Source of the DNA: an uncultured Burkholderiales bacterium
GTDB lineage: Bacteria; Vulcanimicrobiota; Xenobia; Xenobiales; Xenobiaceae
NCBI GenBank assembly: GCA_964595195.1
Contig: CAZQPM010000075.1
Span: 1-13,842 of the forward strand
DNA length: 13,842 nucleotides
Direction of reading: 5' to 3'
Below, piece by piece: positions 762 through 13,201 of this stretch; position 1 is the first letter of the stretch; every line of letters begins with the position of its first letter. The notes below the pieces were generated by a model, which was given only the letters and a program-made list of their open reading frames with translations, searched no databases and was not told where the DNA came from. The translations under genes were made by a program, and so were the position numbers.

Positions 762-1162
762 TGGCGAAGGCCCTCGGCTTCAGCCTGGAGGAGATGGCGG
801 CCCGGGCGCTGGCGGCCCGAACCGGGATCGCGATCTCCAGCATGTGTACTGTCTTCGCTGAAAGCGAGGTGACCGGCCTCATACACCGCGGGGAAGACCG
901 GGGCCGAATCGCGCGCGGCCTGCACGAGTCGATCGCCCGGCGCACACTCAGTTCGCTTCAGCGCGTGAGGGCGCAGGGCCCGTTGGTGTTTGCTGGCGGC
1001 GTGGCCCGAAATCCGGCCATGGTGGCCCTCATTCTCGAGGGCTTCGCGGGCGAGGTGCGGGTTCCGCCAGATCCCCAGATTGTGGGCGCCTATGGAGCTG
1101 CCCTGAGTGCATGTCCGACCCTCCAGGCTCAGGAGGTGGCCTCCACCACCGACTCAGGCTGA
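722..1162 (+). pseudogene. C-terminal half (about 146 aa) of a CoA-substrate-specific enzyme activase (HgdC/BcrA/BcrD-type ATPase). The N-terminal ATP-binding half is missing.
   Basis: Frame +2 from 722 reads DPCAAGTGKFLEVMAKALGFSLEEMAARA...SSMCTVFAESEVTGLIHRGEDRGRIARGLHESIARRTLSSLQRVRAQGPLVFAGGVARNPAMVALILEGFAGEVRVPPDPQIVGAYGAALSA. This matches the HgdC motifs CAAGTGRFLDVMA, TCTVFAESEV, IIAGIHRS and TGGVAQN-(Q)YNGALGAAL. The frame is open upstream only to a TGA at 662-664. The first 100-120 aa of an activase (the GIDGGST ATP-binding segment) are absent. The stop is TGA at 1160-1162. Confidence 0.75.
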
Positions 1163-1392
1163 CCCCGTCGTTCCAGGCTTCCGCTCTCCAATGGAGAGGA
1201 AGAAACCAACGGAAACCCAGGAACTCCCCGAGGCCCAGCAATCCTGGATGCACGCGGGCTCGACGCGACGTTGCCGCCCCCGGTGCCGGATGGGCCGGCG
1301 GACCAGGAAGGACGGCAGTCGGGCCTGTTCAGGTGGCCGTGGCTATCGAGCAGGAGCGGCCGGATTCCGGCCAGGGAGAGCGGGCGGTAATC

Positions 1393-3495
1393 TCAGCGGG
1401 ACTCGGCCACCGCCTTGGCCTGGCCCAGGGGCAGTTCGCCCAGACCCAGGCTGCCAGCCGCTTCCAGAAGCTTCTGCAGGCCCGCCTTCTCGGGCCCCTG
1501 ACTGCGGGCCACCAGGAGGCCCAGGGCCGCCGACAGGGTCAGGCTCTGCAGGTCCCCGGCCGAGAGAGCGGGATGGGAGAGCACCTCCTTGAGGTCCTGC
1601 GGGAGGCTGCGCCCCCCTTCCAGATACTCCGCCGCCAGGTTCCGGGCCACCTGGCTGCGCCCCACGAAGCCGTCCATGGCCTTGCCCAGCGAGACGGCGC
1701 TGAACATCTTGTCCATGAAGGCGCCGTCCCCGCCCACGATATCGATCCTGGCGTTCTTGAAGGCCTCGCCCATCACGTGGGCCTGGTGCTCGGCCACGCC
1801 CAGACGGGTCCTCAGTTCCTCCAAAGCGATCAGGCGCTCGTTCTCCAGGCGCAGGCGATACTCTTCATGACCGCGGCTGGCCTCGTTGAGGGCTGCCATG
1901 GCCTGGGCCTTCTCGGCCAGACCCTTGGCCTCGCCGGTCAGCCTCAGCTCGATGGCGTCGGCCTCGGCTCGAGCCCGTTCCCGCAGCACGGTGACATCGG
2001 CCAGGCCCAGTTTCTCCTGAGCCGGGGCCTTGGCTTCCTGCACCCGGACCTCGGCCATGCCCTGCTTCTCGAAGGCGGCCGCCTGGGCTTCCTGCACCCG
2101 GGCCTCGGCCAGGCCGGGGGCGGCGGTCTCGGCCTGCACGCCCTCGGCCAGGCGGATCTTGGCGGCAGCCGCGCGGTCGGCGGACTGCTGCTCGGCCTCG
2201 GCCAGGGTCAGCATCTCCTTGGAGCGCAGCCGCGAGACCGCCTCGGCGGCCTCGGCCCGACGGATCTCCTTGGCCGCCGCCTCCTCGGCCTCGGCCTGGG
2301 CGGCGATCACGGCGGCCTCCTTCAGGCGGCGGGCCTCCTCGACGACGCGCACGCCCTTGATGCGCTCCTCCTCCTCGGCCACGGTCTTCTCGACGGCCAC
2401 GCGCTCGCGGATGACCTCCTGGATGTTCTTGCGCTGCTCCTCGAGGTCGCGCTCCTTGGCGATGCGCTGCAACTCGACCTCGCGCTCGCGGGCCACGGCC
2501 TCCAGGTCCCTCTCGCGGGTCACCCGCTCCTGCTCGACGGCGATCACCCGCTCGCGGTTCTTCTCGGCCACCTGAACCTCGCGCATCTTGTTCTGTTCCT
2601 GCACGGACAGTTCTTCGTCGGTCTTGATCCGGGCGGTCTCGGAGCGCAGCCTCTCCTCGGCCTGCACCTTCTCGGTCTCGGCCTGCTCGCGGGCCCGCAC
2701 CGTGGCGATCTCGCGATCCTTGCGGGCCTCGGCGTCGGCCTTCTGCCGTTCCAGGTCGAAGATCAGGGCGGCGGCCTCCACGTCCTGTTTGGTGATCTGC
2801 TTCTTGCGGGTGTTCTCCCACTCGTTGGTGCGGATGTGCTCCTGGGCGGTCAACTCGGTGATCTTCTTGATGCCCTGGGCGTCCAGGATGTTCTCGGGGT
2901 CCAGGTTGGAGAGCGGCGTCTGCTCGAGGTGGTCGATGGCCGCGTCCTCCAGGTAGTAGCCGTTCAGGTGGCGACCGATGACCTCGATGATCGCGTCGCG
3001 GAACTTCTCGCGCTGGGTGTAGAGGTCCTCGAAGTCCATCTGCTTGCCCACCGTCTTGAGGGCCTCGGAGAACTTGGCGGCGAAGAGCCGGTCCAGGGTC
3101 TCGGGGTCGCTGGCCCGACGGCAGCCGATATTCTGGGCCACCTGGATCACGTCTTCCTTGGTCTTGTTGACGCGCACGAAGAAGGTGACCCGGATGTCCG
3201 CCCGGATGTTGTCCTTGCAGATCAGCCCCTCCTTGCCGCGGCGGTCGATATCCACCGTGCGCACCGACAGGTCCATGAACTCGGCCTTGTGCCAGATGGG
3301 GAAGACCCAGCCCCCGGTGAAGGTCACCTCGGGGTCCTTGCCGCGCTTGTTGACGATCAGGGCCTGACCCTGCTCGACCAGGATCAGCACGTTGCTGACC
3401 CAGCGGCGGAAGAGGGTCCAGACCAGGGGAATCCCCACCGCCAAGGCGACCAGGATGACCCCCCAGGTAGCGTAGGACTTCAGGGATTCAAGCAC
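1393..3495 (-). CDS. floT: Flotillin-family SPFH/band-7 membrane protein (FloT/YqiK-like), 700 aa, with an unusually long E/A/R-rich coiled-coil (flotillin EA-repeat) region.
   Basis: There is a GTG start at 3495 with a GGAGG 9 nt upstream on the - strand. The N-terminal transmembrane helix is YATWGVILVALAVGIPLVW. The SPFH core reads ALIVNKRGKDPEVTFTGGWVFPIWHKAEFMDLSVRTVDIDRRGKEGLICKDNIRADIRVTFFVRV. A long AEAR/VQEA-type coiled coil follows, then a C-terminal flotillin-like tail. The stop is at 1393-1395. Confidence 0.9.
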   Translation of the reverse strand: MLESLKSYATWGVILVALAVGIPLVWTLFRRWVSNVLILVEQGQALIVNKRGKDPEVTFTGGWVFPIWHKAEFMDLSVRTVDIDRRGKEGLICKDNIRADIRVTFFVRVNKTKEDVIQVAQNIGCRRASDPETLDRLFAAKFSEALKTVGKQMDFEDLYTQREKFRDAIIEVIGRHLNGYYLEDAAIDHLEQTPLSNLDPENILDAQGIKKITELTAQEHIRTNEWENTRKKQITKQDVEAAALIFDLERQKADAEARKDREIATVRAREQAETEKVQAEERLRSETARIKTDEELSVQEQNKMREVQVAEKNRERVIAVEQERVTRERDLEAVAREREVELQRIAKERDLEEQRKNIQEVIRERVAVEKTVAEEEERIKGVRVVEEARRLKEAAVIAAQAEAEEAAAKEIRRAEAAEAVSRLRSKEMLTLAEAEQQSADRAAAAKIRLAEGVQAETAAPGLAEARVQEAQAAAFEKQGMAEVRVQEAKAPAQEKLGLADVTVLRERARAEADAIELRLTGEAKGLAEKAQAMAALNEASRGHEEYRLRLENERLIALEELRTRLGVAEHQAHVMGEAFKNARIDIVGGDGAFMDKMFSAVSLGKAMDGFVGRSQVARNLAAEYLEGGRSLPQDLKEVLSHPALSAGDLQSLTLSAALGLLVARSQGPEKAGLQKLLEAAGSLGLGELPLGQAKAVAESR
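2030..2114. repeat. Imperfect 31-nt direct repeat with a 54-nt (18-codon) period inside the flotillin coiled-coil coding region.
   Basis: ttggcttcctgcacccggacctcggccatgc (2030-2060) and tgggcttcctgcacccgggcctcggccaggc (2084-2114) differ at 3 positions. On the - strand they encode GMAEVRVQEAK / GLAEARVQEAQ. The gcctcggcc motif recurs many times across 1900-2400. Confidence 0.8.
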
Positions 3496-3678
3496 GATTC
3501 GGGACCTCCAACCTCGGATTCCGGGACGGGACCTTCCGGACGAACCTGGTCGGGTCCTGGTCGGGGCCCCGATCCGTTGGAGATCGGGCCCTACGAGGGA
3601 ACGGGCCCCTCCAGCCGCGAACCAGGTCGGTCACCGCGACCCGGCCAGGGTACGATCGACCGATGGGGAGGCCCGGAC
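3496..3678. promoter_or_regulatory. Divergent intergenic region between the flotillin (-) and the purine permease (+). It contains a 7-bp-stem inverted repeat, CCCGATC-n7-GATCGGG, at 3568-3588.
   Basis: This is a 183-nt non-coding gap between the divergent starts at 3495 and 3679. The ribosome-binding sites are a GGAGG for the flotillin and GGGAGG at 3665-3670 for the permease. The palindrome is at 3568-3574 / 3582-3588. No convincing sigma70 -35/-10 pair could be assigned. Confidence 0.4.
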
Positions 3679-5016
3679 TTGCAGCAACTGATCGACCGCT
3701 ACTTTGGAGTCACCCAGGCAGGAAGCACGCTCAAGACCGAGCTCCTGGCCGGCCTGACCACCTTCCTGACCATGGCCTACATCCTCTTCCTGAACCCCCA
3801 GATCCTGGGGGACGCGGGCATGGATACCCGGGCCGTCATGCTGGCCACCGCGCTGGCCTCCGGCTTCGGTTGCCTGGCCATGGGCCTGGTGGCCCGGCTT
3901 CCCTTCGCGCTGGCGCCCGGGATGGGCGTCAACGCCTTCTTTGCCTACACCGTGGTGGCCCAGAAGCACATCCCCTGGCAGGTGGGCCTGGGCGCCGTCT
4001 TCCTGGACGGGCTGCTCTTCCTGATCCTCAGCATCCTGCCGATCCGGGAACGCATCATCCGGGAGATCCCCTACAGCCTGAAACTGGCCACCTCGGGGGC
4101 CATCGGTCTGTTCATCACCTTCATCGGCCTGCGCAGCGCGGGCATCGTGGCCGCGTCCGACGCCACCCTGGTGACCATGGGCCACCTGACCTCTCCCCCG
4201 GTGGCCCTGGCCGTGGGGGGCCTGCTGCTGATGGGCTGGCTTCTGGCCCGCGGGGTGAGGGGGGCCCTGCTGCTGGGGATCCTGGCCGTGACCGTGGTCG
4301 GCCTCTTCGTGCCGGGGGCCGACGGGCCCGTCACCCACCTTCCCCGGGGCGGGGCCCTGGTGGCCCTCCCCGACCTGGGGGTCCTGGGCCTGGTCATGGG
4401 CCAGATGGACGTGGTCGGGGCCCTCGAGATGGGCCTGGTGGTGATCGTCTTCACCTTCACCTTCGTCGACCTCTTCGACACCGCGGGCACCTTCGTCGGC
4501 CTGGGCACGCGCATGGGCTGGATCGACCGCGAACGCCAGAGCTTCCCGGGCCTGGGCCGGGGCCTCGTGGTGGACGCCGTGGCCACCATGTTCGGTGCCT
4601 TCGCCGGGACCAGCACCACCACCACCTACGTCGAGAGCGCCGCCGGCATCTCGGAAGGCGGGCGAACGGGCCTGACCTCGGTCACGGTAGGCCTCCTCTT
4701 CCTGGCCGCCATGGTCTTCGCCCCCCTGGCCGGGGTGGTGCCCGCCCAGGCCACGGCGCCGGCCCTGATCCTGGTGGGCTTCCTGATGCTCGAGCCGGTG
4801 ACCCGGTTGGACCTGATCGACGTCACCGAGGCCCTCCCCGCCTTCCTGACCCTGGTGATCATGCCGCTGACCTACAACATCGCCAACGGGCTGATCTGGG
4901 GCATCACCAGCTATGCCATCCTGAAGGCCCTGACCGGCCGCGGGCGCGAGGTCGGCGTCACCATGTGGGTGCTGGCGATCCTGTTCATCCTGGCCGTGAC
5001 GATGGACCTGCGCTAG
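3679..5016 (+). CDS. NCS2-family nucleobase permease of the AzgA/COG2252 subfamily (adenine/guanine/hypoxanthine permease; PbuG/PurP/GhxP-like), 445 aa.
   Basis: There is a TTG start at 3679 with a GGGAGG 8 nt upstream. The N-terminus MQQLIDRYFGVTQAGSTLKTELLAGLTTFLTMAYILFLNPQIL is the signature start of AzgA-like permeases (compare E. coli AdeP ...[39 protein letters not shown]). The protein has about 12 hydrophobic segments throughout. The stop is TAG at 5014-5016. The upstream part of the 1301-aa ORF 1111..5016 is antisense flotillin and is not part of this gene. Confidence 0.9.
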   Translation: MQQLIDRYFGVTQAGSTLKTELLAGLTTFLTMAYILFLNPQILGDAGMDTRAVMLATALASGFGCLAMGLVARLPFALAPGMGVNAFFAYTVVAQKHIPWQVGLGAVFLDGLLFLILSILPIRERIIREIPYSLKLATSGAIGLFITFIGLRSAGIVAASDATLVTMGHLTSPPVALAVGGLLLMGWLLARGVRGALLLGILAVTVVGLFVPGADGPVTHLPRGGALVALPDLGVLGLVMGQMDVVGALEMGLVVIVFTFTFVDLFDTAGTFVGLGTRMGWIDRERQSFPGLGRGLVVDAVATMFGAFAGTSTTTTYVESAAGISEGGRTGLTSVTVGLLFLAAMVFAPLAGVVPAQATAPALILVGFLMLEPVTRLDLIDVTEALPAFLTLVIMPLTYNIANGLIWGITSYAILKALTGRGREVGVTMWVLAILFILAVTMDLR

Positions 5017-5024
5017 CCGGGCCG

Positions 5025-6242
5025 ATGCAGGACCTCTACGTCGACCTGCACGTGCACATCGGCCGCAACGGCCAGGGCCGGCCCGTCAAGATCACCGCCA
5101 GCCGGCGCCTGACCTTCGCGGCCGTGATCCGCGAGTGCCGCGAGCGCAAGGGCCTGGACATGGTCGGCGTCATCGACTGCGCCTGCACCGGGGTCCTGCA
5201 GGATCTGCGGAAACTGATCGACCAGGGCGAGCTGCTGGAGTTGCCCGAGGGCGGCCTGCGCCACCGAGGGCGGGTCACCGTCGTGGCAGGTGCCGAGGTG
5301 GAGGCCGTCGAGGAGTCCGGGGGCGTCTCACACCACCTGTGCTACTTCCCGTACCTCCGCAACCTGGCCGAGTTCTCCCGGGTCATGTCCGGCTACATCA
5401 CGAACATGGAGCTCTCCTCCCAGCGCTGCGGCCTGCCGGCCCGCGAACTGGCGGCCGTGGTCCATTCCACCGGAGGTATCCTGGTCCCGGCCCACGCCTT
5501 CACTCCCCACAAGAGCGTCTACGGGAACGCGTGCGACCGCCTGGCGGACCTGCTGGGGTCAGGCTGGGAGCAGGTGTCGGCGCTGGAGTTGGGCCTGTCC
5601 GCCGACTCGGCGCTGGCCGACCATCTGCCCGAGCTGGCCGGGGTGACCCTCCTGTCCAACTCCGACGCCCACTCTCCGGAGAGGATCGGCCGGGAGTACA
5701 ACGTGATCCGCATGGAGGCCCCCAACTATCGCGAGCTGGTGCTGGCCCTGCACCGGACCGCGGGCCGCCGGGTGGTGGCCAACTACGGTCTGGACCCGCG
5801 CCTGGGCCGCTACCACCGCTCGTTCTGCACGGTCTGCGAGGCGCCCGTCACGGCCCCTCCCCCGGTGCTGGCCTGCCCCCGATGCGGCGCCGCCGACAAG
5901 CGCTTCGTGCGCGGCGTCCTGGACCGGGTCCGCTCGCTGGCCGGGCGCCAGGGCCCCGAATCGCCCGAGCACCGCCCCCCCTACCGCTACCAGGTGCCGC
6001 TGAGCTTCGTGCCCGGGCTGAGCCGGGCTGGCCTGAACCGCCTGATCGCGCGCTTCGGCAGCGAGATGGCGGTGCTGCATCAGGCCCGGCCAGAGGAGAT
6101 GGCCAGCCTGGTGGGCTGGGAGGTGGCGCGCTCGATCGGGGAAGCCCGCGAGGGCCGCCTCAACCTGGAGGCCGGGGGTGGCGGCCACTACGGCAGGGTC
6201 GCGGCCGGGCCTCACCGCGGGGAGCAGTTGGGCCTGTTCTGA
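5025..6242 (+). CDS. Endonuclease Q (EndoQ) family protein (TIGR00375 / PHP-like fold), 405 aa. It is a predicted endonuclease that nicks DNA 5' of deoxyuridine, hypoxanthine or abasic sites.
   Basis: The ATG at 5025 lies 8 nt after the permease stop. The protein aligns motif by motif with Pyrococcus furiosus EndoQ: DLHVHIG (Pfu DLHIHS), HHLCYFP (HHLLIFP), PAHAFTP (identical), LELGLSADSALAD (LELGLSADSDMAD), LSNSDAHSP (identical), GLDPRLGRYH (GLDPRLGKYH), a zinc finger CTVCE-x13-CPRCG (C..C...CPKCGG), DRPPY (identical) and GGGGHYG (GGGGKYG). The real start is internal to the 859-aa ORF 3663..6242. Confidence 0.85.
   Translation: MQDLYVDLHVHIGRNGQGRPVKITASRRLTFAAVIRECRERKGLDMVGVIDCACTGVLQDLRKLIDQGELLELPEGGLRHRGRVTVVAGAEVEAVEESGGVSHHLCYFPYLRNLAEFSRVMSGYITNMELSSQRCGLPARELAAVVHSTGGILVPAHAFTPHKSVYGNACDRLADLLGSGWEQVSALELGLSADSALADHLPELAGVTLLSNSDAHSPERIGREYNVIRMEAPNYRELVLALHRTAGRRVVANYGLDPRLGRYHRSFCTVCEAPVTAPPPVLACPRCGAADKRFVRGVLDRVRSLAGRQGPESPEHRPPYRYQVPLSFVPGLSRAGLNRLIARFGSEMAVLHQARPEEMASLVGWEVARSIGEAREGRLNLEAGGGGHYGRVAAGPHRGEQLGLF
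6225..6239 (+). other. C-terminal pentapeptide QLGLF of EndoQ, a candidate beta sliding-clamp (DnaN) binding motif.
   Basis: The last five codons before the TGA are cag ttg ggc ctg ttc. This fits the bacterial clamp-binding consensus QL[SD]LF / QLxLF, located at the extreme C-terminus as in Pol IV and Pol II. Archaeal EndoQ carries a C-terminal PIP box for PCNA at the equivalent position. Confidence 0.4.
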
Positions 6243-6267: not shown

Positions 6268-6684
6268 TCAGGACTCCAGGTAGCGCATCACGTCCGCGGG
6301 ATACTCGACGTGGTAGACCAGGGAAAGGGTGTGACCCGTCAGGGTGCTGGCCCGGGGCACCAGGTTCTGCTCTTCCAGAATCATCGAGAAGTAGCGGCGC
6401 AGCCGGCGCCCCAGGGCCGTGTTGGCGGTCTGCACGTGGTAGCGCACGGGCTTCAGGCCGTGGATGTGCAGGGTCACCTCCTGCTGGAGCCGCCCGATCG
6501 TGGCGTACATCTGGATCCGGGAGTTCGAGCGCTGGCGAGCGCACACCACGAAGCGGGGAGGCTGGGCCTCGCGGGCATTCAGGAATTCGACCAGGCGGTG
6601 CAGGATCTTCAGGAAGTGCTCCTCGGCACGAGTGAACCGGAAGAAGGTCTGCTCGAACCGGTGCATCTGCTCGGCCTCGAACAT
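6268..6684 (-). CDS. Hypothetical cytoplasmic protein, 138 aa, His-rich. It lies immediately downstream of the DtxR-family regulator (7-nt gap).
   Basis: The start was chosen at the internal ATG 6684 (MFEAEQMHRFEQTFFRF...) with a GGAGG 13 nt upstream. Before that Met, the ORF's in-frame N-terminal extension would overlap the DtxR tail. The stop is TGA at 6268-6270. The protein has no transmembrane segment. It has many His residues (MHRF, EEHF, ILHRL, TLHIHGL, RYHV, GHTL, YHVEY) and no recognisable family from sequence alone. Confidence 0.5.
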   Translation of the reverse strand: MFEAEQMHRFEQTFFRFTRAEEHFLKILHRLVEFLNAREAQPPRFVVCARQRSNSRIQMYATIGRLQQEVTLHIHGLKPVRYHVQTANTALGRRLRRYFSMILEEQNLVPRASTLTGHTLSLVYHVEYPADVMRYLES

Positions 6685-6691
6685 CGGGACG

Positions 6692-7447
6692 CTACGACCT
6701 CCGCACACGGGCAGCCCGGACGGCCCGGGCCCTCCGGTTCTGTGAGCCCTCGAGGCGCTCATCTGCCAGCCAGGGTCGCCCCAGGTTCGCCAGAGCCGGC
6801 CGGACGGCCACCTTACCGGCAACCTCGCGGCTCAGGGGAAAGGACTTGTCGTCCACCGACACCAGCAGGGGGCCATCGAAGGGCGCCACCTGCTCGACGG
6901 TGACCCGCTGACCGGGCCACAGGCCGACCTCGACCAGATAGTCGACCAACTCCACCGAGCCCTCCTTGACCCGCTCGATCACCACCTGCTGCCCCGCCAG
7001 GACCGAGGCCAGGGGCCAGGCGTCCTGCAGGTCGATGTGGCCCGCGCGGTCGGGGATGGGCTGCCCGTGCGGACAGGTCTTGGGGTGCCCCAGGAAGTCG
7101 TCCAGAGCGTCGGCCACCTCATCGGAGAGGATGTGCTCCAGCTTGCAGGCCTGGTCATAGGCGTGGGCCCAGGGAATCCCCAGTCGGTCCACCAGCAACC
7201 TCTCGGCCAGGCGATGCTTGCGGATCACGTTCAGGACGATCCGCTCGCCTTCGCGAGTCAACTGCAGAGCCCGGGAATTCTTGACGATCAGTCCCTTCTC
7301 GTGCAGTTTGCGGACCATCTCGGTGACCGAAACGGCGCTGACCCCCAGGCGTTCAGCCAGGCGGACGTTGGCCGGCACGACCTCACCCTCCTCGGAGAGA
7401 CGATAGATCGTGAGAAGATACATCTGGACGGATTCGGAAACGGACAC
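6692..7447 (-). CDS. DtxR/IdeR/MntR-family metal-dependent transcriptional repressor with a C-terminal SH3-like (FeoA-like) domain.
   Basis: The N-terminal HTH and metal-binding core is (VSVSESVQ)[47 protein letters not shown]...[57 protein letters not shown], which parallels M. tuberculosis IdeR (TEMYLRTIY..., [18 protein letters not shown]...EACRWEHVMSEDVE). The start is either GTG 7447 (GAGGG 5-6 nt upstream) or ATG 7423. The upstream 130 aa of ORF 6692..7819 are an artefact. The stop is TAG at 6692-6694, and there is an Arg-rich C-terminal tail. Confidence 0.85.
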
Positions 7448-7663
7448 TTCAACCCTCAGGGCCGGGATTTCGCGTTGGTTCCCAAGTCTTCCTGGCCCTC
7501 CCGCGGGCGGAGATTTCCCGGTTGCCGCCGACCCCTCCGGGTGGAGGACTCTTCTTCCCCATGACAGAAACAAGGTGCCCAAGACGCCGGGCCAGCGGGT
7601 CTGCCCCCCAGGGAATCGGTGGGGTCCACCTCGCCCGGCGACGCAACGCGATCGGGAGACCCC
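7448..7663. promoter_or_regulatory. Divergent intergenic region between the DtxR-family regulator (-) and the metallophosphoesterase (+). It contains a repeated GGGATTTCGCG / GGAGATTTCCCGG element.
   Basis: This is a 216-nt non-coding gap. The GATTTC-containing elements sit at about 7464-7474 and 7505-7517. A short palindrome TTGG-ttc-CCAA lies at about 7476-7486. The phosphoesterase ribosome-binding site GGGAG is at 7654-7658. Confidence 0.35.
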
Positions 7664-8752
7664 ATGGACCCCCAGAGCCCCTCCAACAGCCCGTTCGGAC
7701 CGACGGAGAATCCAGCCAGCCCGGAGCCCGGCGAACAGGCCCCACTTCGGCGCAAGCTGCTGGCCATCGGCGATCTCCACGGCGACTACCACCGTCTGCT
7801 GCGCCATCTGCGCGAGCACCAGTTGCTGTTCGAGGATACCCTGGCCTGGAACCCCGAGCAGGACAACGTCGACCTGGTGCTGATCGGCGACTACGTCGAC
7901 TGGCGCGGCGAACCCCTGGAGGAGCCCACCGACCAGTCACCGGAACTGCCCGAAGCCGGGCCCCGGCGAATCCTGGAACTGCTGATGCACCTGGACGAAG
8001 AACTGGAGAAGCTGCGAGGCGCCATCCCGGGCTTCGCCAGCCAGCTCTACGCGCTCCTGGGCAACCACGACGAGATGATGCTGGATGCCGTCGGGGTCTT
8101 CGACTTCCTGCACGTCGAACAGCTCGAGGAGGTCCTGGGCCGGGCCCGCAACTTCGCCGCGGTGAAGCGTCACATGGCCGAAAGGGGCCTGAACGCCGAC
8201 CAACTCGAACGCGTCATGCGCTTCATGAACTGGTACGTCCAGGGAGGCGAGCAGACGGCCAAGGGATTCGGCGGTCTGGTGGCCTGGAAGGAGGCCATGG
8301 ATCGCGACCTGGGCCGCTTCCTGCGGACCCGCCTGCGGCTGGGAGTGGTGGTCGACCACCGCCTCTTCGCCCACACGATCCCGGACCAGCGCAAGTTCTG
8401 GAGACCGCTGGAGGAGATCGTCGCACTCCCCGACAACGAGTTCCGCTCGGCTCGCGAGTCCTTCCTGTGGAGCCGGAAGATCTGGGGCTTCGACTACTAT
8501 ACAGGGATGCGCACGAATCCCTTCTCGGACAAGGAGCTCGACGAGATGCTGGGACGCCTGGGCGTTCGCGGCCTGGTGGTCGGGCACACGCCTCTCACCC
8601 GTGGCCAGGAGTACGTGGTGGCCTACGGAGGCAAGGTGATCAACCTGGACGTGCACGGCACGCCGGGGGCCGCGGCCCTGGTCGAGGAGTACGTGCCCTC
8701 CGAGAACAGCTCCCGGGCCCCCCTGCGGATCCAGGTCCAGGGTTCGAAGTGA
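7664..8752 (+). CDS. Calcineurin-like metallophosphoesterase (PPP/ApaH-like Ser/Thr phosphatase or bis-nucleoside tetraphosphatase-like), 362 aa, with a Ser/Pro-rich N-terminal tail.
   Basis: The ATG at 7664 has a GGGAG 5 nt upstream. The alternative GTG at 7619 lacks a ribosome-binding site. The motifs are GDLHGDY (GDxHG), GDYVDWRG (GDxVDRG-like), GNHDE (GNH[DE]), VVGHTP (GH) and DVHGT. The stop TGA at 8750-8752 overlaps the next start. Confidence 0.85.
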
Positions 8753-9681
8753 AGGAGATCCAGGAACTCAGCCAGCGGGTGCTGGCCAACGTCGAGAAGG
8801 TCATCCTGGGCAAGCACGAGGAGATCCGCTTGGTCCTGGTCGCCCTGCTGTGCGAGGGCCACGTGCTGCTGGAGGATGTCCCGGGAGTCGGCAAGACCAT
8901 GCTGAGCCGCGCCGTGGCCCGTTCGCTGGGCTGCTCCTTCGCCCGGCTCCAGTGCACCCCGGATCTCCTGCCGTCAGACCTCCTGGGTGTGACCATCTAC
9001 AACCAGAAGTCGATGGACTTCGAGTTCCGCCCCGGGCCGGTCTTCCACCAGGTGCTGCTGGCCGACGAGATCAACCGGGCCACGCCCAAGACCCAGTCGG
9101 CCCTCCTGGAAAGCATGGACGAGCGTCAGGTGACCACCGAAGGGGTGGCCCGCCCCCTGCCCCGCCCCTTCCTGGTGATGGCCACCCAGAATCCCATCGA
9201 GTACGAGGGCACCTTCCCCCTGCCCGAGGCCCAGTTGGACCGCTTCCTGCTGAGGATCCGCCTGGGCTATCCCTCGTTCGAGGCCGAGACCGAGATGCTG
9301 GTCTCCCAGCAGCACCACCATCCGATCGAGGACCTGGACCAGGTCGTCGCCGGCCCCGAACTGCAGCGCATGCAGGCCATGGTCCACGAGGTGGAGGTGG
9401 AGGAATCCCTGCGCCACTACATCGTGCGCCTGGTCCAGGCGACCCGGGAGGCCGACCGGCTCTTCCTGGGCGCCAGCCCCCGGGGCAGCCAGGCCCTGTT
9501 CCGGGCGGCCCAGGCCCTGGCCGCCATGGAGGGTCGCCGCTACGTGCTGCCCGACGACATCAAGGCCCTGGCGATCCCGGCGCTTTCCCACCGGATGATC
9601 TCCCGGACGGATGGGGTCGGCGGCCGGGCCGCCGTCGAGGTCCTGCAGGGCCTGCTGGACCGACTGCCGGTCCCGGTCTAG
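8749..9681 (+). CDS. moxR: MoxR-family AAA+ ATPase (AAA_3 / COG0714), 310 aa.
   Basis: The GTG start at 8749 overlaps the upstream stop (GTGA). The N-terminus [61 protein letters not shown] is the typical MoxR start. Walker A is PGVGKT, Walker B is [10 protein letters not shown] and sensor 1 is ATQNP. The length is typical for MoxR. The upstream part of ORF 7522..9681 is in another frame over the phosphoesterase and is an artefact. Confidence 0.9.
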
Positions 9682-9748: not shown

Positions 9749-10492
9749 CTAGGTCGCGACCAGGGCCCGCAACCCCTCCAGGACGTGGCCTGCCTGCAGC
9801 ACTGGGATGCCCTTTTCGCGAGCCAGGGCGCGCGCGGCCGGGGTGTTGTAGCCCCAGCCGGCCAGGGCCACCCGGACCCCGGTCTCGAAGACCGGCTCCA
9901 GGTTCGCCAGCAGGTCATCGACGAAGACGATCCGCTCCGGGTCGACCCCTCGCGTGGCCGCCAGGAAGCCCATCTGGTCCCGCTTGTCCAGGCTGAACTC
10001 CTTGGCCAGGATCGAAGCCTTCAGGTCCGCCGTTTCCAGCAACTCACGGATCGAGCCCTCATCCTTGGTGGTGCAGATGACCACCTCGCGGAAGGCCCGG
10101 CGCAACAAGGGCCACTCCTGGAGCATCGCGGGATAGGGAGCCTGGGCGGCCAGCCAGGCCTCCCTCTCCTCCCTCCGGGCCCGCTGGCGCTGGGCGTAGA
10201 ACTCCTCTTCGAAGCTCTTCAGGAACGAGCCCCCTCCCGAGCTGGAGGCCAGCAACTGTTCGCGACTGAGGGCCTCCAGGTCCCGGTCCGGGTCCTCCTG
10301 GAGCAGGCGCAGCACCAGGCCGAACTCGCCGCCGGTGCGGACCAGCCAACGGCCGCGCCGGAAGGCAGCCTCGCTGACCGCAGGCCAGGGCAGCCCCAGG
10401 GCCTCCCAAGCCCGGCGGGCCGTGATGAAACATTCGCCGACGCTATCCCACAGGACCCCATCGAAGTCCAGGGCCAGCAGGTGCTCCTTCAT
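9749..10492 (-). CDS. HAD-superfamily hydrolase (haloacid dehalogenase-like phosphatase), 247 aa.
   Basis: The ATG at 10492 overlaps the gltX stop (ATGA). Motif I is LALDFDGVLWDS (DxDG), motif II is ICTTKD, and the motif III region is VFVDD. The stop is TAG at 9749-9751. Confidence 0.8.
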   Translation of the reverse strand: MKEHLLALDFDGVLWDSVGECFITARRAWEALGLPWPAVSEAAFRRGRWLVRTGGEFGLVLRLLQEDPDRDLEALSREQLLASSSGGGSFLKSFEEEFYAQRQRARREEREAWLAAQAPYPAMLQEWPLLRRAFREVVICTTKDEGSIRELLETADLKASILAKEFSLDKRDQMGFLAATRGVDPERIVFVDDLLANLEPVFETGVRVALAGWGYNTPAARALAREKGIPVLQAGHVLEGLRALVAT

Positions 10493-11931
10493 GGACGGGG
10501 CAGCCGGTCCAGGGCTGCGCGCAGCCGGCGCAGGCAGACCTCGCGCCCCAGGACCTCCATCATCTCGAAGAGGCCCGGACCGTTGCCCACGCCCGACAGG
10601 GCCAACCGGGTCGGGTGGATCAACTGTCCGGCCCCCAACCCCCGGCTCTCGGTCAGCCCGCGCAGGGCCTGGTCCAAGGAATCATGGTTGAACTCCGGCA
10701 GGTCCTGCAGCACGGCGATCCAGGCCTCCACCAGGTCCGGGGAGTTGGCCTTCCAGCGCTTCTTGACCGTGCCCTCCTCGTAGTCGGTGGGGTCCTCGTA
10801 GAAGTAGGAAACGGGCTCGACGTAGTCCGTCAGGAGGTTCGCGCGCTCACCCAGGACCTCGACGACGCGGGCCAGGTACTCCGGTTGGGGCCGGGGTCTG
10901 CCAGCCCGATCGAAGAAGGGCAGCACCAACTCGACCAGGCGTTCGGTGGTCTGGGCGCGCATGTGCAGCCCGTTGATGTGCAGCAACTTGTCGAAGTCGA
11001 AGACCGCACCCGACTTGCGGACCCGATCCAGGCCGAAGACGCCGGTCAGTTCCTGGGGCGTGAAGAACTCGCGCTCGTCGCCGGGACTCCAGCCCAGGAG
11101 GGCCAGGAAGTTCAGCAGCCCCTCGGGCAGGTAGCCCTTCTCGCGATAGGCCTCGACCGAGACGTCCCCGTCGCGCTTCGACAGCTTCTTGCCGCTGGCA
11201 TTCAGGATCAGGGGCACGTGGGCGAAGACCGGCGGCTCCCAGCCGAAGTACTCGTAGAGGAGGAGGTGCTTGGGGGTGGAGGACAACCACTCCTCACCCC
11301 GGATCACGTGGGTGATCTCCATCAGGTGGTCGTCCACCACGGCGGCCAGGTGGTAGGTGGGGAAGCCGTCCGACTTCATCAGGACCTGGTCGTCCACCAG
11401 CGAGGACTCGAAACTGACGGGCCCGCGGATCTGGTCCTCCACGGTCAGCGTGCGGCCTTCGGGGATCCGCATGCGGATCACGTGGGCCTCGCCGACGGCC
11501 AGGCGGCGGTCCCGCTCGGCGGGGTCCAGGGACCGACAGTGACCGTCATACATGGCCGAGTCGCCACGAGCCATCTGCTCCTCGCGCATCGCGGTGAGGC
11601 GCTCGGGGGTGCAGAAACAGGGATAGGCATGGCCGGCCTCGACCAGCTTCGCGGCCATCTCGCGGTAGATCTCCAGGCGTTCGCTCTGCACGTAGGGTCC
11701 CAGCGGACCGCCGACCATCGCGCCCTCGTCGGGGGTCACCCCCGCCCACTCCAGGGATTCCAGCAGGGCTTCGACGGCCCCCTCGACCAGACGCGTACGG
11801 TCCGTATCCTCGATGCGCAGCAGGAAGCTCCCGCCTTCCCTGCGGGCCAGCAGCCAGTTGTAGAAGGCGGTTCTCAACCCCCCGACGTGCAGATAACCGG
11901 TAGGGCTGGGAGCGAAGCGGACGCGGACCAT
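10489..11931 (-). CDS. gltX: Glutamyl-tRNA synthetase (class I aaRS), 480 aa.
   Basis: The ATG at 11931 has a GGAGA 7 nt upstream. The N-terminus is MVRVRFAPSPTGYLHVGGLRTAFYNWLLAR, with the HIGH motif as HVGG. The KMSKS motif is KLSKR. A CxC-x24-C zinc-binding-like motif (CFCTPERL...GHC) matches the E. coli GluRS pattern. The N-terminal 218 aa of ORF 10489..12585 are an antisense artefact over dus. Confidence 0.92.
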   Translation of the reverse strand: MVRVRFAPSPTGYLHVGGLRTAFYNWLLARREGGSFLLRIEDTDRTRLVEGAVEALLESLEWAGVTPDEGAMVGGPLGPYVQSERLEIYREMAAKLVEAGHAYPCFCTPERLTAMREEQMARGDSAMYDGHCRSLDPAERDRRLAVGEAHVIRMRIPEGRTLTVEDQIRGPVSFESSLVDDQVLMKSDGFPTYHLAAVVDDHLMEITHVIRGEEWLSSTPKHLLLYEYFGWEPPVFAHVPLILNASGKKLSKRDGDVSVEAYREKGYLPEGLLNFLALLGWSPGDEREFFTPQELTGVFGLDRVRKSGAVFDFDKLLHINGLHMRAQTTERLVELVLPFFDRAGRPRPQPEYLARVVEVLGERANLLTDYVEPVSYFYEDPTDYEEGTVKKRWKANSPDLVEAWIAVLQDLPEFNHDSLDQALRGLTESRGLGAGQLIHPTRLALSGVGNGPGLFEMMEVLGREVCLRRLRAALDRLPRP

Positions 11932-12079: not shown

Positions 12080-13201
12080 ATGTCGTCCCCCTGGCCCGAC
12101 CCGCTGATGCTGGCCCCCCTGACCAAGGGGGGGAACCTTCCCTTCCGCCGCCTTTGCGTCGACTTCGGCGCCGTGATCACCATGTCCGAGATGGCCTTCG
12201 CCGGCCCCCTGACCCGCGGGATCCGCAAGGAACTGGCCCTGCTGCGCAGGGGCCCGGAAGAGCCCTGCTTCGGCGTGCAACTGGCGGCTTCCAAGCCCGA
12301 GATGGCCGTGGAGGCCGCCCTGCTGGCCGTGGACCGGGGAGCCGCCTTCGTCGACCTGAACGCGGGCTGCCCGATCGCCGAGGCGGTCCACAAGGGGATG
12401 GGGGCCAGCCTTCTGGACCGGCCCCGCAACCTCGAGCGCCTGCTGGCGGCCCTGGTCCGGGCCGTCCCCGTGCCCGTCACCGTGAAACTGCGCACCGGCT
12501 TCAAGGAGTCACGGATCAACGTGCTGGAGACCTCGCGCCTGGCCGAGGAGGCCGGCGTGGCGGCCATCACGGTCCACGGTCGCACCCGCGAGCAGCGCTA
12601 CACGCGGGCGGCGGATTGGGACCTGATCGGCCAGGTGGTGCAGGCTCGCCGCGTCCCCGTGGCCGGGAACGGCGACGTGCTGACCTGGTATGAGGCCGCC
12701 CGTCGCCTGGAAATCAGCGGGGCTGCCGGCGTGATGCTGGGCCGGGGGGCCCTGATCAAGCCCTGGCTCTTCCAGGAGATCCGCGAGCGTCGGGAACTGT
12801 GCCTGACGCCCGCCCAACGGGTCTCGGTCTACCGCCGGCTGGCCGGCTACTTCCGAGAGCATTTCGGGGATGACGAACACGGCCGCCAGCGCTCGCTGGA
12901 CTTCCTGACCTGGCACTTCGCCTTCTTCCACCGCTATCGGCCGTTGCCACCTGAGCCGTGGGAATCGCGCTCGCGCGAGCACCCCCTGCTGCAGACGCGG
13001 ATGGACCCGATCCTGTCCGAGGACCCCCTGGAGAACGTCCTGGCCCACCCTGAGGAGGCGACCCATCGCCAGATCGCCGCCATCCTCCTGGACAGTGGCG
13101 ACGACGAGGAAGCCCGGGTATGCCTGGCCGCCCTGGCGCCGGGCCTGGAGGTCCCGCGGGCCCCGGAGCGGCCCGGCCCGGAGGCTGCGGTCCAAGGCTG
13201 A
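12080..13201 (+). CDS. dus: tRNA-dihydrouridine synthase (Dus family flavin oxidoreductase), 373 aa, with a C-terminal extension.
   Basis: The ATG is at 12080. The N-terminus MSSPWPDPLMLAPLTKGGNLPFRRLC matches Dus N-termini (LAPMAGVTDxPFRxLC). The catalytic-Cys loop is DLNAGCP. Further motifs are TVKLRTG and TVHGRTREQRY. The C-terminal 40-50 aa have no counterpart in typical Dus proteins. The stop is TGA at 13199-13201. Confidence 0.88.
   Translation: MSSPWPDPLMLAPLTKGGNLPFRRLCVDFGAVITMSEMAFAGPLTRGIRKELALLRRGPEEPCFGVQLAASKPEMAVEAALLAVDRGAAFVDLNAGCPIAEAVHKGMGASLLDRPRNLERLLAALVRAVPVPVTVKLRTGFKESRINVLETSRLAEEAGVAAITVHGRTREQRYTRAADWDLIGQVVQARRVPVAGNGDVLTWYEAARRLEISGAAGVMLGRGALIKPWLFQEIRERRELCLTPAQRVSVYRRLAGYFREHFGDDEHGRQRSLDFLTWHFAFFHRYRPLPPEPWESRSREHPLLQTRMDPILSEDPLENVLAHPEEATHRQIAAILLDSGDDEEARVCLAALAPGLEVPRAPERPGPEAAVQG

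Follow-up and report, generated by a model that had tools for sequence, protein, structure and literature searches.

The stretch of DNA studied here, referred to as the window, comprises 13,842 nucleotides (nt) of contig CAZQPM010000075.1 with a GC content of about 68%. Two adjacent genes on its plus strand are the subject of this work: a gene at 7664-8752 for a PPP-family metallophosphatase of 362 amino acids (aa) with a Metallophos domain (PF00149), and a gene at 8749-9681 for a MoxR AAA+ ATPase of the AAA_3/MRP type, 310 aa in length and with AAA_3 and AAA_lid_2 domains. The phosphatase frame opens with ATG at 7664 and runs through 362 codons to a TGA stop at 8750-8752, while the MoxR frame opens with GTG at 8749-8751 and runs through 310 codons to a TAG stop at 9679-9681. 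Read directly from the sequence, bases 8740-8759 are gggttcgaaG TGAaggagat, in which the MoxR start and the phosphatase stop share the GTGA at 8749-8752. An earlier note on this DNA had described this coupling, with a MoxR start at GTG 8749, and it is exact on the sequence; the assignment of the two products to a PPP-like phosphoesterase and to the MoxR family is likewise borne out by Pfam, motifs and fold. The gene map of the window was made with a codon-usage gene caller trained for each locus, and annotations were taken from Pfam and NCBIfam. Both starts, at 7664 and at 8749, are supported because they were chosen by the gene caller, because the public gene calls on the contig give the same two proteins, of 362 and 310 aa, with sequences identical to our translations (P0121 in our homolog table is the public protein identical to the window MoxR), and because a block, GCGATCGGGAGACCCC-ATG, with a ribosome-binding site is kept 5' of 7664 among relatives.

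Conservation of the phosphatase-MoxR pair

Orthologs of the phosphatase gene were located in 63 loci, namely the window, 58 loci with one genome per GTDB species (L005-L062) and four metagenome loci. By tblastn and gene calling, a MoxR gene lies directly 3' of the phosphatase gene and on the same strand in 58 of the 63, and phosphatase identity across the paired loci goes down to about 41%. Such conservation of adjacency is far beyond chance, and a pairing first noticed in one genome is thus kept outside it. Seen from the MoxR side, the phosphatase gene is directly upstream in all three clade members that were checked. The two genes are also closely spaced. Among the 58 pairs they overlap in 29, frequently by 1-16 nt, and are separated by 0-30 nt in 22, by 31-100 nt in four and by more than 100 nt in three. 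The flanks of the pair vary, with 27 gene families at the -1 position and 14 at the +2 position, and the next commonest neighbours are gltX (41 of 63 loci) and a HAD-like gene (34), all others reaching at most 16. The link between phosphatase and MoxR is clearly tighter than any other in the region. In the literature searched we found no description of a MoxR linked to a PPP or metallophosphoesterase partner, in agreement with the view of the earlier note that the pairing lies outside the canonical MoxR contexts, and the association has not been previously described.

Five loci depart from the pairing: L023, L055, L059, L061 and L062. L055 carries the phosphatase gene without MoxR, the contig of L059 comes to an end, and L061 and L062 hold distant phosphatase homologs of 35% and 30% identity. 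In L023, from a gut-associated species, MoxR is cleanly absent between the phosphatase gene and the convergent HAD-like and gltX genes (10990-11110), with the genes on either side retained, and the stop codon of the phosphatase gene is followed by a GC-rich hairpin.

The distribution of paired loci largely coincides with that of the phosphatase family itself, and most loci are labelled as metagenome-assembled genomes (MAGs) of Vulcanimicrobiota, Eremiobacterota, Candidatus Xenobia or UBP9. The MAGs of L008, L016-L018, L034, L036, L042, L055 and L056 are labelled Burkholderiales, Bacillota, Selenomonadaceae, Chloroflexota or Armatimonadota. They share the phosphatase, MoxR and their neighbours with Xenobia-type MAGs, and their labels probably reflect mislabelling or mis-binning.

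The neighbours of the pair are housekeeping genes, including gltX, HAD, RecJ, pseudouridine synthase, methyltransferase, pyruvate:ferredoxin oxidoreductase (POR), TatA and DUF503 genes. The pair is single-copy, and its synteny with gltX, HAD-like, dus, recJ and por genes is kept across a class-level lineage. It is a vertically inherited pair in a housekeeping region, not in a defence island. This setting bears on the idea, also raised in the earlier note, of a defence module. The pair would then be an anti-phage or conflict module akin to the MoxR-vWA ternary systems with calcineurin-like phosphoesterase effectors, and phosphoesterase domains of the calcineurin superfamily are indeed among the effectors of such systems (PMC7159879). 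The MoxR also gives weak matches to defence profiles, with 30 bits for bpMoxR and E-values of about 2.5e-5 to 5e-5 for IetA/IteA. However, these are generic AAA matches (IetA/TRIP13) far below the 211 bits obtained with AAA_3, and the phosphatase has no PADLOC match and resembles protein phosphatases rather than nucleotide phosphodiesterases. Moreover, the ternary systems require a vWA protein and a third component, neither of which is encoded at the locus, and a single-copy, vertical and syntenic pair is unlike patchy defence islands. We consider this explanation very improbable, and it was rejected on the PADLOC results and the conserved housekeeping synteny.

The phosphatase is a lineage-specific member of the PPP family

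The phosphatase matches Metallophos PF00149 with an E-value of 9e-10, above the curated cut-off, over its N-terminal half only. Its motifs are GDLHGD (nt 7769-7786), GDYVDWRGE (7886-7912) and GNHD (8060-8071), followed by H237, GHT (H308) and N327-x-D329-x-H331. Alignments of 25 and 83 homologs contain 37 invariant columns, and GDLHGD, GNHD, H237, GHT (H308) and D329/H331 are invariant in all 83 sequences. The alignments also show a lambda-phosphatase-like motif, NWYVQGG. As read from the alignments, the motif set is that of the PPP family, except that the second motif, GDYVDWRG, is a variant lengthened by one residue (W).

An AlphaFold2 model of the protein (pLDDT 91.8, pTM 0.90) has a disordered segment at residues 1-29 and a helical insert at about residues 96-223. 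Foldseek searches of the PDB with this model returned 2ZBM/2Z72, the Shewanella cold-active phosphatase (E 2e-9), and 1G5B, the lambda phosphatase (1e-6), followed by 5VJV, PP1, PP5, PP2A and calcineurin, all at a probability of 1.00; RLPH2 and RDGC are also among the best structural matches. The TM-scores, 0.35-0.49 when normalised to the query and at most 0.70 when normalised to lambda phosphatase, are modest because of the helical insert. A profile search of PDB sequences found the Shewanella cold-active protein-tyrosine phosphatase only (E 1e-9). In sequence and predicted fold the protein is less close to ApaH than to the PPP protein phosphatases of the Shewanella-like and lambda-phosphatase branch. 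The label ApaH-like that it had been given earlier does not hold: no NCBIfam ApaH model matched, and the best solved relatives are protein phosphatases of the Shelph and lambda types. In NCBIfam as a whole, no family matches the protein at E<=0.01. It is predicted to be catalytically intact, and fold and motifs suggest a phosphoprotein phosphatase activity.

The comparison with Shelph/CAPTPase (PDB 1V73, 2Z72), with lambda phosphatase, PrpA and PrpB, and with RLPH2 gives the same fold and the same GDxHG, GDxxDRG-like, GNH[DE] and later His motifs, and the lambda-type NGG motif has its counterpart in NWYVQGG. The phosphatase differs from these enzymes, however, by an identity of only 14-17%, by the GDYVDWRG insertion, by the large helical insert and by belonging to a discrete, tiny family. 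When 1.84 billion cluster representatives were searched exhaustively with HMMER, just 18 proteins scored E<=1e-30, below which the scores drop steeply to generic PPP matches. The phosphatase therefore belongs to a small, sharply bounded, lineage-specific PPP subfamily with the signature GDYVDWRG, characteristic of the uncultured Xenobia/UBP9 branch of Vulcanimicrobiota. We know of no case in which Shelph, lambda phosphatase, PrpA, PrpB or RLPH2 is paired with an AAA+ ATPase.

The C-terminal tail of the protein is variable and of low confidence. It carries APLR at nt 8717-8728 (residues 352-355), the local form of a motif [A/T/D]PLR[D/S] found in about half of the family; elsewhere, sub-clades carry DVDPSTVRG or lack the tail altogether. 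This motif could be a docking peptide.

The ATPase is a standard MRP-type MoxR

The MoxR protein scores 211.5 bits against AAA_3 PF07726 (cut-off 27) and 77.4 bits against AAA_lid_2 PF17863 (cut-off 22.7). Walker A, GVGKT, is at nt 8884-8898 (MoxR residues 46-50), and Walker B, LLADE, at residues 103-107 with the DE at nt 9064-9069. Sensor-1 (ATQN), an arginine-finger region (PEAQLDRF) and sensor-2 (GASPRG) are present as well, and these ATPase motifs are kept in the consensus of the phosphatase-linked MoxR clade. The closest solved structure is the Cytophaga MoxR PDB 2R44 (E 6.3e-70 over residues 10-297). The protein is a putative ATP-dependent, hexameric chaperone.

Beyond the lineage, the closest MoxRs share 63-66% identity with that of the pair and bear labels of the Chloroflexota type. 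A DUF58 gene lies downstream of all four that were checked, directly in two and past one radical-SAM gene in the other two, and DUF4129 is also present beside two of the four. These closest sequences belong to MRP-type MoxR-DUF58(-DUF4129/transglutaminase) operons of Chloroflexota and Actinomycetota. In a neighbour-joining tree of 178 MoxR sequences, the internal branches are very short (0.02-0.04), the phosphatase-linked MoxRs are divided between a large group and three groups on long branches, and a DUF58-linked clade adjoins the large group; the tree supports neither a claim of monophyly nor one of paraphyly. The ATPase is thus a standard MRP-type MoxR that lacks the DUF58 gene usually found behind it and has a phosphatase gene in front.

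DUF58 and VWA genes in the lineage

Linkage to a VWA or DUF58 gene is usual for MoxR ATPases, although it does not strictly define the family. No DUF58 or VWA gene was found in the 13.8-kb window, either by Pfam or by tblastn with DUF58 and VWA proteins of relatives. Pfam scans of 212 neighbouring proteins, 108 from the two genes downstream and 104 from the two genes upstream, gave the same picture for 57 related loci: DUF58 and VWA are absent among the recurrent families within two genes on either side. A VWA gene beside this MoxR in relatives would imply a local loss in the window, and none is seen there. When the flanks of 10 kb on either side were searched by tblastn with Xenobia DUF58, BatA and BatB, only the Bat-type operons of two loci, L001 and L048, were matched. 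In both, a separate and complete operon lies on the opposite strand, 3-7 kb upstream of the pair (1-5478 of L048 and 1-1140 of L001, both minus strand), in the order MoxR2, DUF58, unknown gene, VWA gene and VWA-TPR gene. Its MoxR2 is about 41% identical to the MoxR of the pair. A TPR-GGDEF gene lies between this operon and the pair.

The Bat, or aerotolerance, operon (MoxR-DUF58-BatA-BatB) therefore resembles our pair in having an AAA_3 MoxR and in occurring in the same lineage, but its MoxR is a separate paralog that comes with DUF58 and VWA genes of its own and is encoded at another locus or on the other strand; the order MoxR-DUF58-(x)-BatA(VWA)-BatB(VWA-TPR) is absent at the window locus. 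The lineage has VWA proteins, but they are accompanied by their own MoxR. The earlier statement that the MoxR has no VWA partner accordingly stands for the neighbourhood of the pair, but not for the lineage, in which relatives carry a separate MoxR-DUF58-VWA operon.

Discussion

The present study describes a bacterial gene pair that combines a PPP phosphatase with a MoxR ATPase, and our best guess is that it represents a chaperone-and-enzyme module. More specifically, we tentatively favour, with rather less than even confidence, a reading in which the two genes form an operon for a dedicated pair and MoxR matures or activates the phosphatase. A MoxR hexamer would remodel, at the cost of ATP, the phosphatase that is translated immediately ahead of MoxR from their shared mRNA. 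The remodelling might help to load or exchange the two active-site metals or might release the enzyme from an inactive or inhibited state, and a VWA adaptor would be dispensable or supplied in trans. The two genes would be co-transcribed, the two proteins would interact physically and the action would run from MoxR to the phosphatase; we infer each of these points, as well as the substrate on which the phosphatase would act. The idea of a dedicated pair is supported by an adjacency that survives the varied families on both flanks and by the retention of all catalytic motifs in both proteins.

The direction of the proposed action is suggested by known MoxR systems. The gene for the client enzyme is found upstream of MoxR in the nor, cbb, cox and mxa clusters. 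In NorQ-NorD (nitric oxide reductase), CbbQ-CbbO (Rubisco), CoxD-CoxE and MxaR, as in our pair, a MoxR-class ATPase gene comes right after the gene of a metal-dependent enzyme. To our knowledge, a PPP phosphatase has not been reported as a MoxR client. We favour MoxR acting on the phosphatase because these systems encode the client metalloenzyme just upstream, because the di-metal centre of PPP enzymes needs ATP-dependent chaperones in eukaryotes, and because MRP-type MoxRs without a linked VWA gene exist. It has been recognized that enzymes encoded next to MoxR/VWA systems are supplied with metals or remodelled by them, as in NorQD (PMC9976466, PMC13036017) and CbbQO (PMC4660213), and the ATPases of such couples are presumed to be dedicated remodelling or metal-insertion factors (PMC9976466, PMC13036017, PMC4660213). 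However, our pair differs from them in two respects. The ATPase is of the AAA_3/MRP type rather than the CbbQ/NorQ type, and NorQ/CbbQ-type couples depend on a VWA protein that plugs the pore of MoxR with a 'finger', whereas no linked VWA or DUF58 gene occurs in the 58 loci.

The requirement of eukaryotic PPP enzymes for assistance is well documented. They need AAA+ or chaperone-assisted maturation and metal loading (PMC10350818, PMC10776994, PMC11626998), and rely on an ATP-driven remodeller to become active and correctly metallated (PMC10350818, PMC10776994, PMC11626998). The maturation of PP1 by p97 with SDS22/Inhibitor-3 and the activation of PP2A by PTPA offer a conceptual parallel, in which an ATP-driven remodeller acts on a metallated PPP enzyme. 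The parallel is an analogy only, since p97 and MoxR belong to unrelated ATPase clades and no SDS22 or Inhibitor-3 homologs were identified at our pair. As to the adaptor, SyMRP of Synechococcus is an MRP-type MoxR without a linked VWA gene nearby and has been proposed to be an ATP-dependent chaperone that works without a VWA partner (PMC11432383). Unlike SyMRP, which has no conserved partner gene, the MoxR described here is almost always accompanied by a specific phosphatase gene.

Several observations, taken together, weigh against the proposal that MoxR matures the phosphatase. The case for an interaction of the two proteins is drawn from gene context. No alignment column contains a residue that discriminates phosphatase-linked from DUF58-linked MoxRs, and therefore nothing in the ATPase marks a changed partner. 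Neither 120 homologs nor the top representative clusters included a phosphatase-MoxR fusion; the extra length of long phosphatase homologs consists of low-complexity tails or assembly artefacts only. The distance matrices of the two proteins correlate (r 0.75), but common vertical descent by itself would give such a value. Long co-directional strings of housekeeping genes surround the pair in many loci. Finally, the MoxR-less phosphatases of L023 and L055, and the distant ones of L061 and L062, keep 37 of 37 invariant residues, indicating that dependence on an adjacent MoxR is not absolute.

Some of these points fit an explanation that we regard as unlikely, namely that the adjacency is synteny only, MoxR working with a DUF58 or VWA protein encoded elsewhere and the phosphatase being a stable neighbour in an old housekeeping operon of phosphatase, MoxR, gltX and HAD genes. 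The MoxR is 63-66% identical to MoxRs that are DUF58-linked in every case checked and is set apart from them at no position, VWA and DUF58 genes are present in the lineage in the Bat-type operon, and the few phosphatases without an adjacent MoxR stay intact. A partner in trans is possible because of that separate MoxR-DUF58-VWA operon and because the MoxR is indistinguishable from its DUF58-linked sisters. The gltX (40 loci) and HAD-like (34 loci) genes are frequent neighbours as well, and the other neighbours are also housekeeping genes. On the other hand, neither gltX nor any other neighbour matches the frequency with which MoxR follows the phosphatase, the link survives many rearrangements on both sides, and the frequent short overlaps argue for selected co-expression. 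In addition, the Bat-type operon already has a MoxR of its own, with only about 41% identity to that of the pair.

A further explanation, to which we would give a similarly low probability, reverses the direction of action. The phosphatase would be the regulator, and MoxR or its clients the target; by removing phosphates from Ser, Thr or Tyr residues of MoxR it would turn the chaperone on or off. The pair would then serve as an output module of phospho-signalling, with a kinase encoded elsewhere. The closest solved relatives of the phosphatase are protein phosphatases (the Shewanella Tyr phosphatase, lambda phosphatase, RLPH2 and PP5), and the sister MoxRs belong to the same MoxR-DUF58-DUF4129/transglutaminase operon type as the PFNA cluster. 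That cluster ties an MRP-type MoxR to Ser/Thr phospho-signalling through the kinase Pkb2 and, optionally, a PP2C phosphatase (PMC8430577). In Bifidobacterium, the MoxR of the PFNA cluster is a reported substrate of its Ser/Thr kinase, and in some species the cluster also has the PP2C phosphatase together with an FHA protein (PMC8430577). However, our pair lacks the DUF58, DUF4129, kinase, FN3 and FHA genes of the MoxR-DUF58 and PFNA operons, and no kinase or FHA gene recurs near it in the 58 loci. The phosphatase of the PFNA cluster is of an unrelated family, PP2C, whereas that of our pair is a PPP enzyme encoded upstream of MoxR and translationally coupled to it. The start/stop coupling implies near-stoichiometric synthesis, which would be unusual for a catalytic regulator, and conserved clade-specific Ser, Thr or Tyr residues were not found in the phosphatase-linked MoxRs.

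The proposal that MoxR acts on the phosphatase draws on two known protein families and on a logic known from other MoxR systems. Its strongest form, that the PPP phosphatase is a new direct partner of MoxR and that a VWA-free MoxR hexamer is its dedicated maturation or activation factor, is doubtful at present. If it is true, prokaryotes would possess an equivalent of the p97/SDS22-assisted biogenesis of PP1, and the mechanism of MoxR could be studied in a minimal system of two proteins. Should MoxR mature the phosphatase, assembly of the PPP di-metal centre with the help of a chaperone, so far described from eukaryotic PP1 and PP2A, would also be bacterial. MoxR ATPases are widespread and the client is unknown for most of them; the pair offers a candidate client for an MRP-type MoxR. 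The current model of MoxR function relies on a VWA 'finger' that plugs the ring, and the pair is a simple system in which to ask whether this adaptor is obligatory.

The leader and the genes around the pair

The phosphatase gene is preceded by an intergenic leader and promoter region at 7448-7663 on the plus strand, a spacer of 216 nt that separates it from a divergent minus-strand gene for a DtxR/MntR-family repressor with an FeoA domain (6692-7447). Alignment with the four closest relatives shows two conserved blocks in this leader, TGGAGGACTCTTC (7542-7554) and GACGCAACGCGATCGGGAGACCCC (7640-7663), the latter of which holds the ribosome-binding site GGGAGA. A simple scan found no sigma-70 consensus promoter and no terminator-like site inside 7664-9681, no Rfam family matched the leader, and no clear DtxR/MntR-type operator palindrome was seen in it by eye. 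The divergent DtxR arrangement is confined to the closest relatives (L002-L008), and a metal-regulation link of the pair through DtxR was dropped for this reason.

Downstream, the gene next to MoxR is a weakly HAD-like gene on the minus strand (9749-10492). The earlier note had called it a convergent HAD hydrolase; it is convergent with MoxR, but its likeness to HAD is weak (PF00702 E 1.5e-4, below the cut-off). It is followed by gltX (10489-11931, minus strand, Pfam), and this gltX/HAD-like operon at 9749-11931 is treated as context of the pair, not as part of the module. Across relatives the gltX/HAD-like genes are the second most conserved neighbour, with gltX within seven genes in 40 of the 58 pair loci. 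In 14 pair loci gltX is the next gene after MoxR and runs in the same direction, the two being separated by -1 to 17 nt in 11 of the 14, and these loci look like a phosphatase-MoxR-gltX-HAD operon. The gltX-HAD unit is found, for example, at 11970-14146 of L009 and at 11881-13323 of L057, and it is inverted and convergent in the clade of the window and in a gut clade. GluRS is a known target of HipA-type kinases, and a link between the phosphatase and GluRS is conceivable. In several lineages the phosphatase gene comes directly after the pyruvate:ferredoxin oxidoreductase genes (1251-4989 of L091, 7593-9213 of L055 and 8547-9928 of L034), and in L091 its start overlaps the stop of the last of them. 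The pair of such lineages belongs to a long co-directional string, in which por, phosphatase and MoxR are followed by gltX, a gene for cation efflux and recJ.

One sub-clade has a gene directly after MoxR for a very acidic, conserved protein of about 130 aa without a Pfam family, which is absent in the window and in all loci outside the sub-clade. It lies at 11923-12321 of L027, 3404-3805 of L033, 2326-2712 of L035, 5658-6041 of L036, 9950-10354 of L037, 6663-7037 of L039 and 11988-12362 of L040, and in most of these a 4-nt overlap joins its start to the MoxR stop. It is possible that this protein is a third component, such as an inhibitor or a client.

The remaining genes of the window lie on both sides of the pair. 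On the far side of gltX, dus is encoded on the plus strand (12080-13201) and a membrane protein on the minus strand (13288 to the end). Upstream of the DtxR gene lie a minus-strand gene of unassigned product (6268-6684) and a plus-strand TIGR00375/PHP-like gene (5025-6242). A 1301-aa open reading frame on the plus strand at 1111-5016 is, by codon statistics, largely a shadow frame. The same statistics, through the codon-usage caller, prefer a 700-aa protein on the minus strand (1393-3495) and a 445-aa xanthine/uracil permease on the plus strand (3679-5016). The 700-aa protein has no Pfam family, and DUF8575 is listed for its syntenic gene in the precomputed annotation of relatives.

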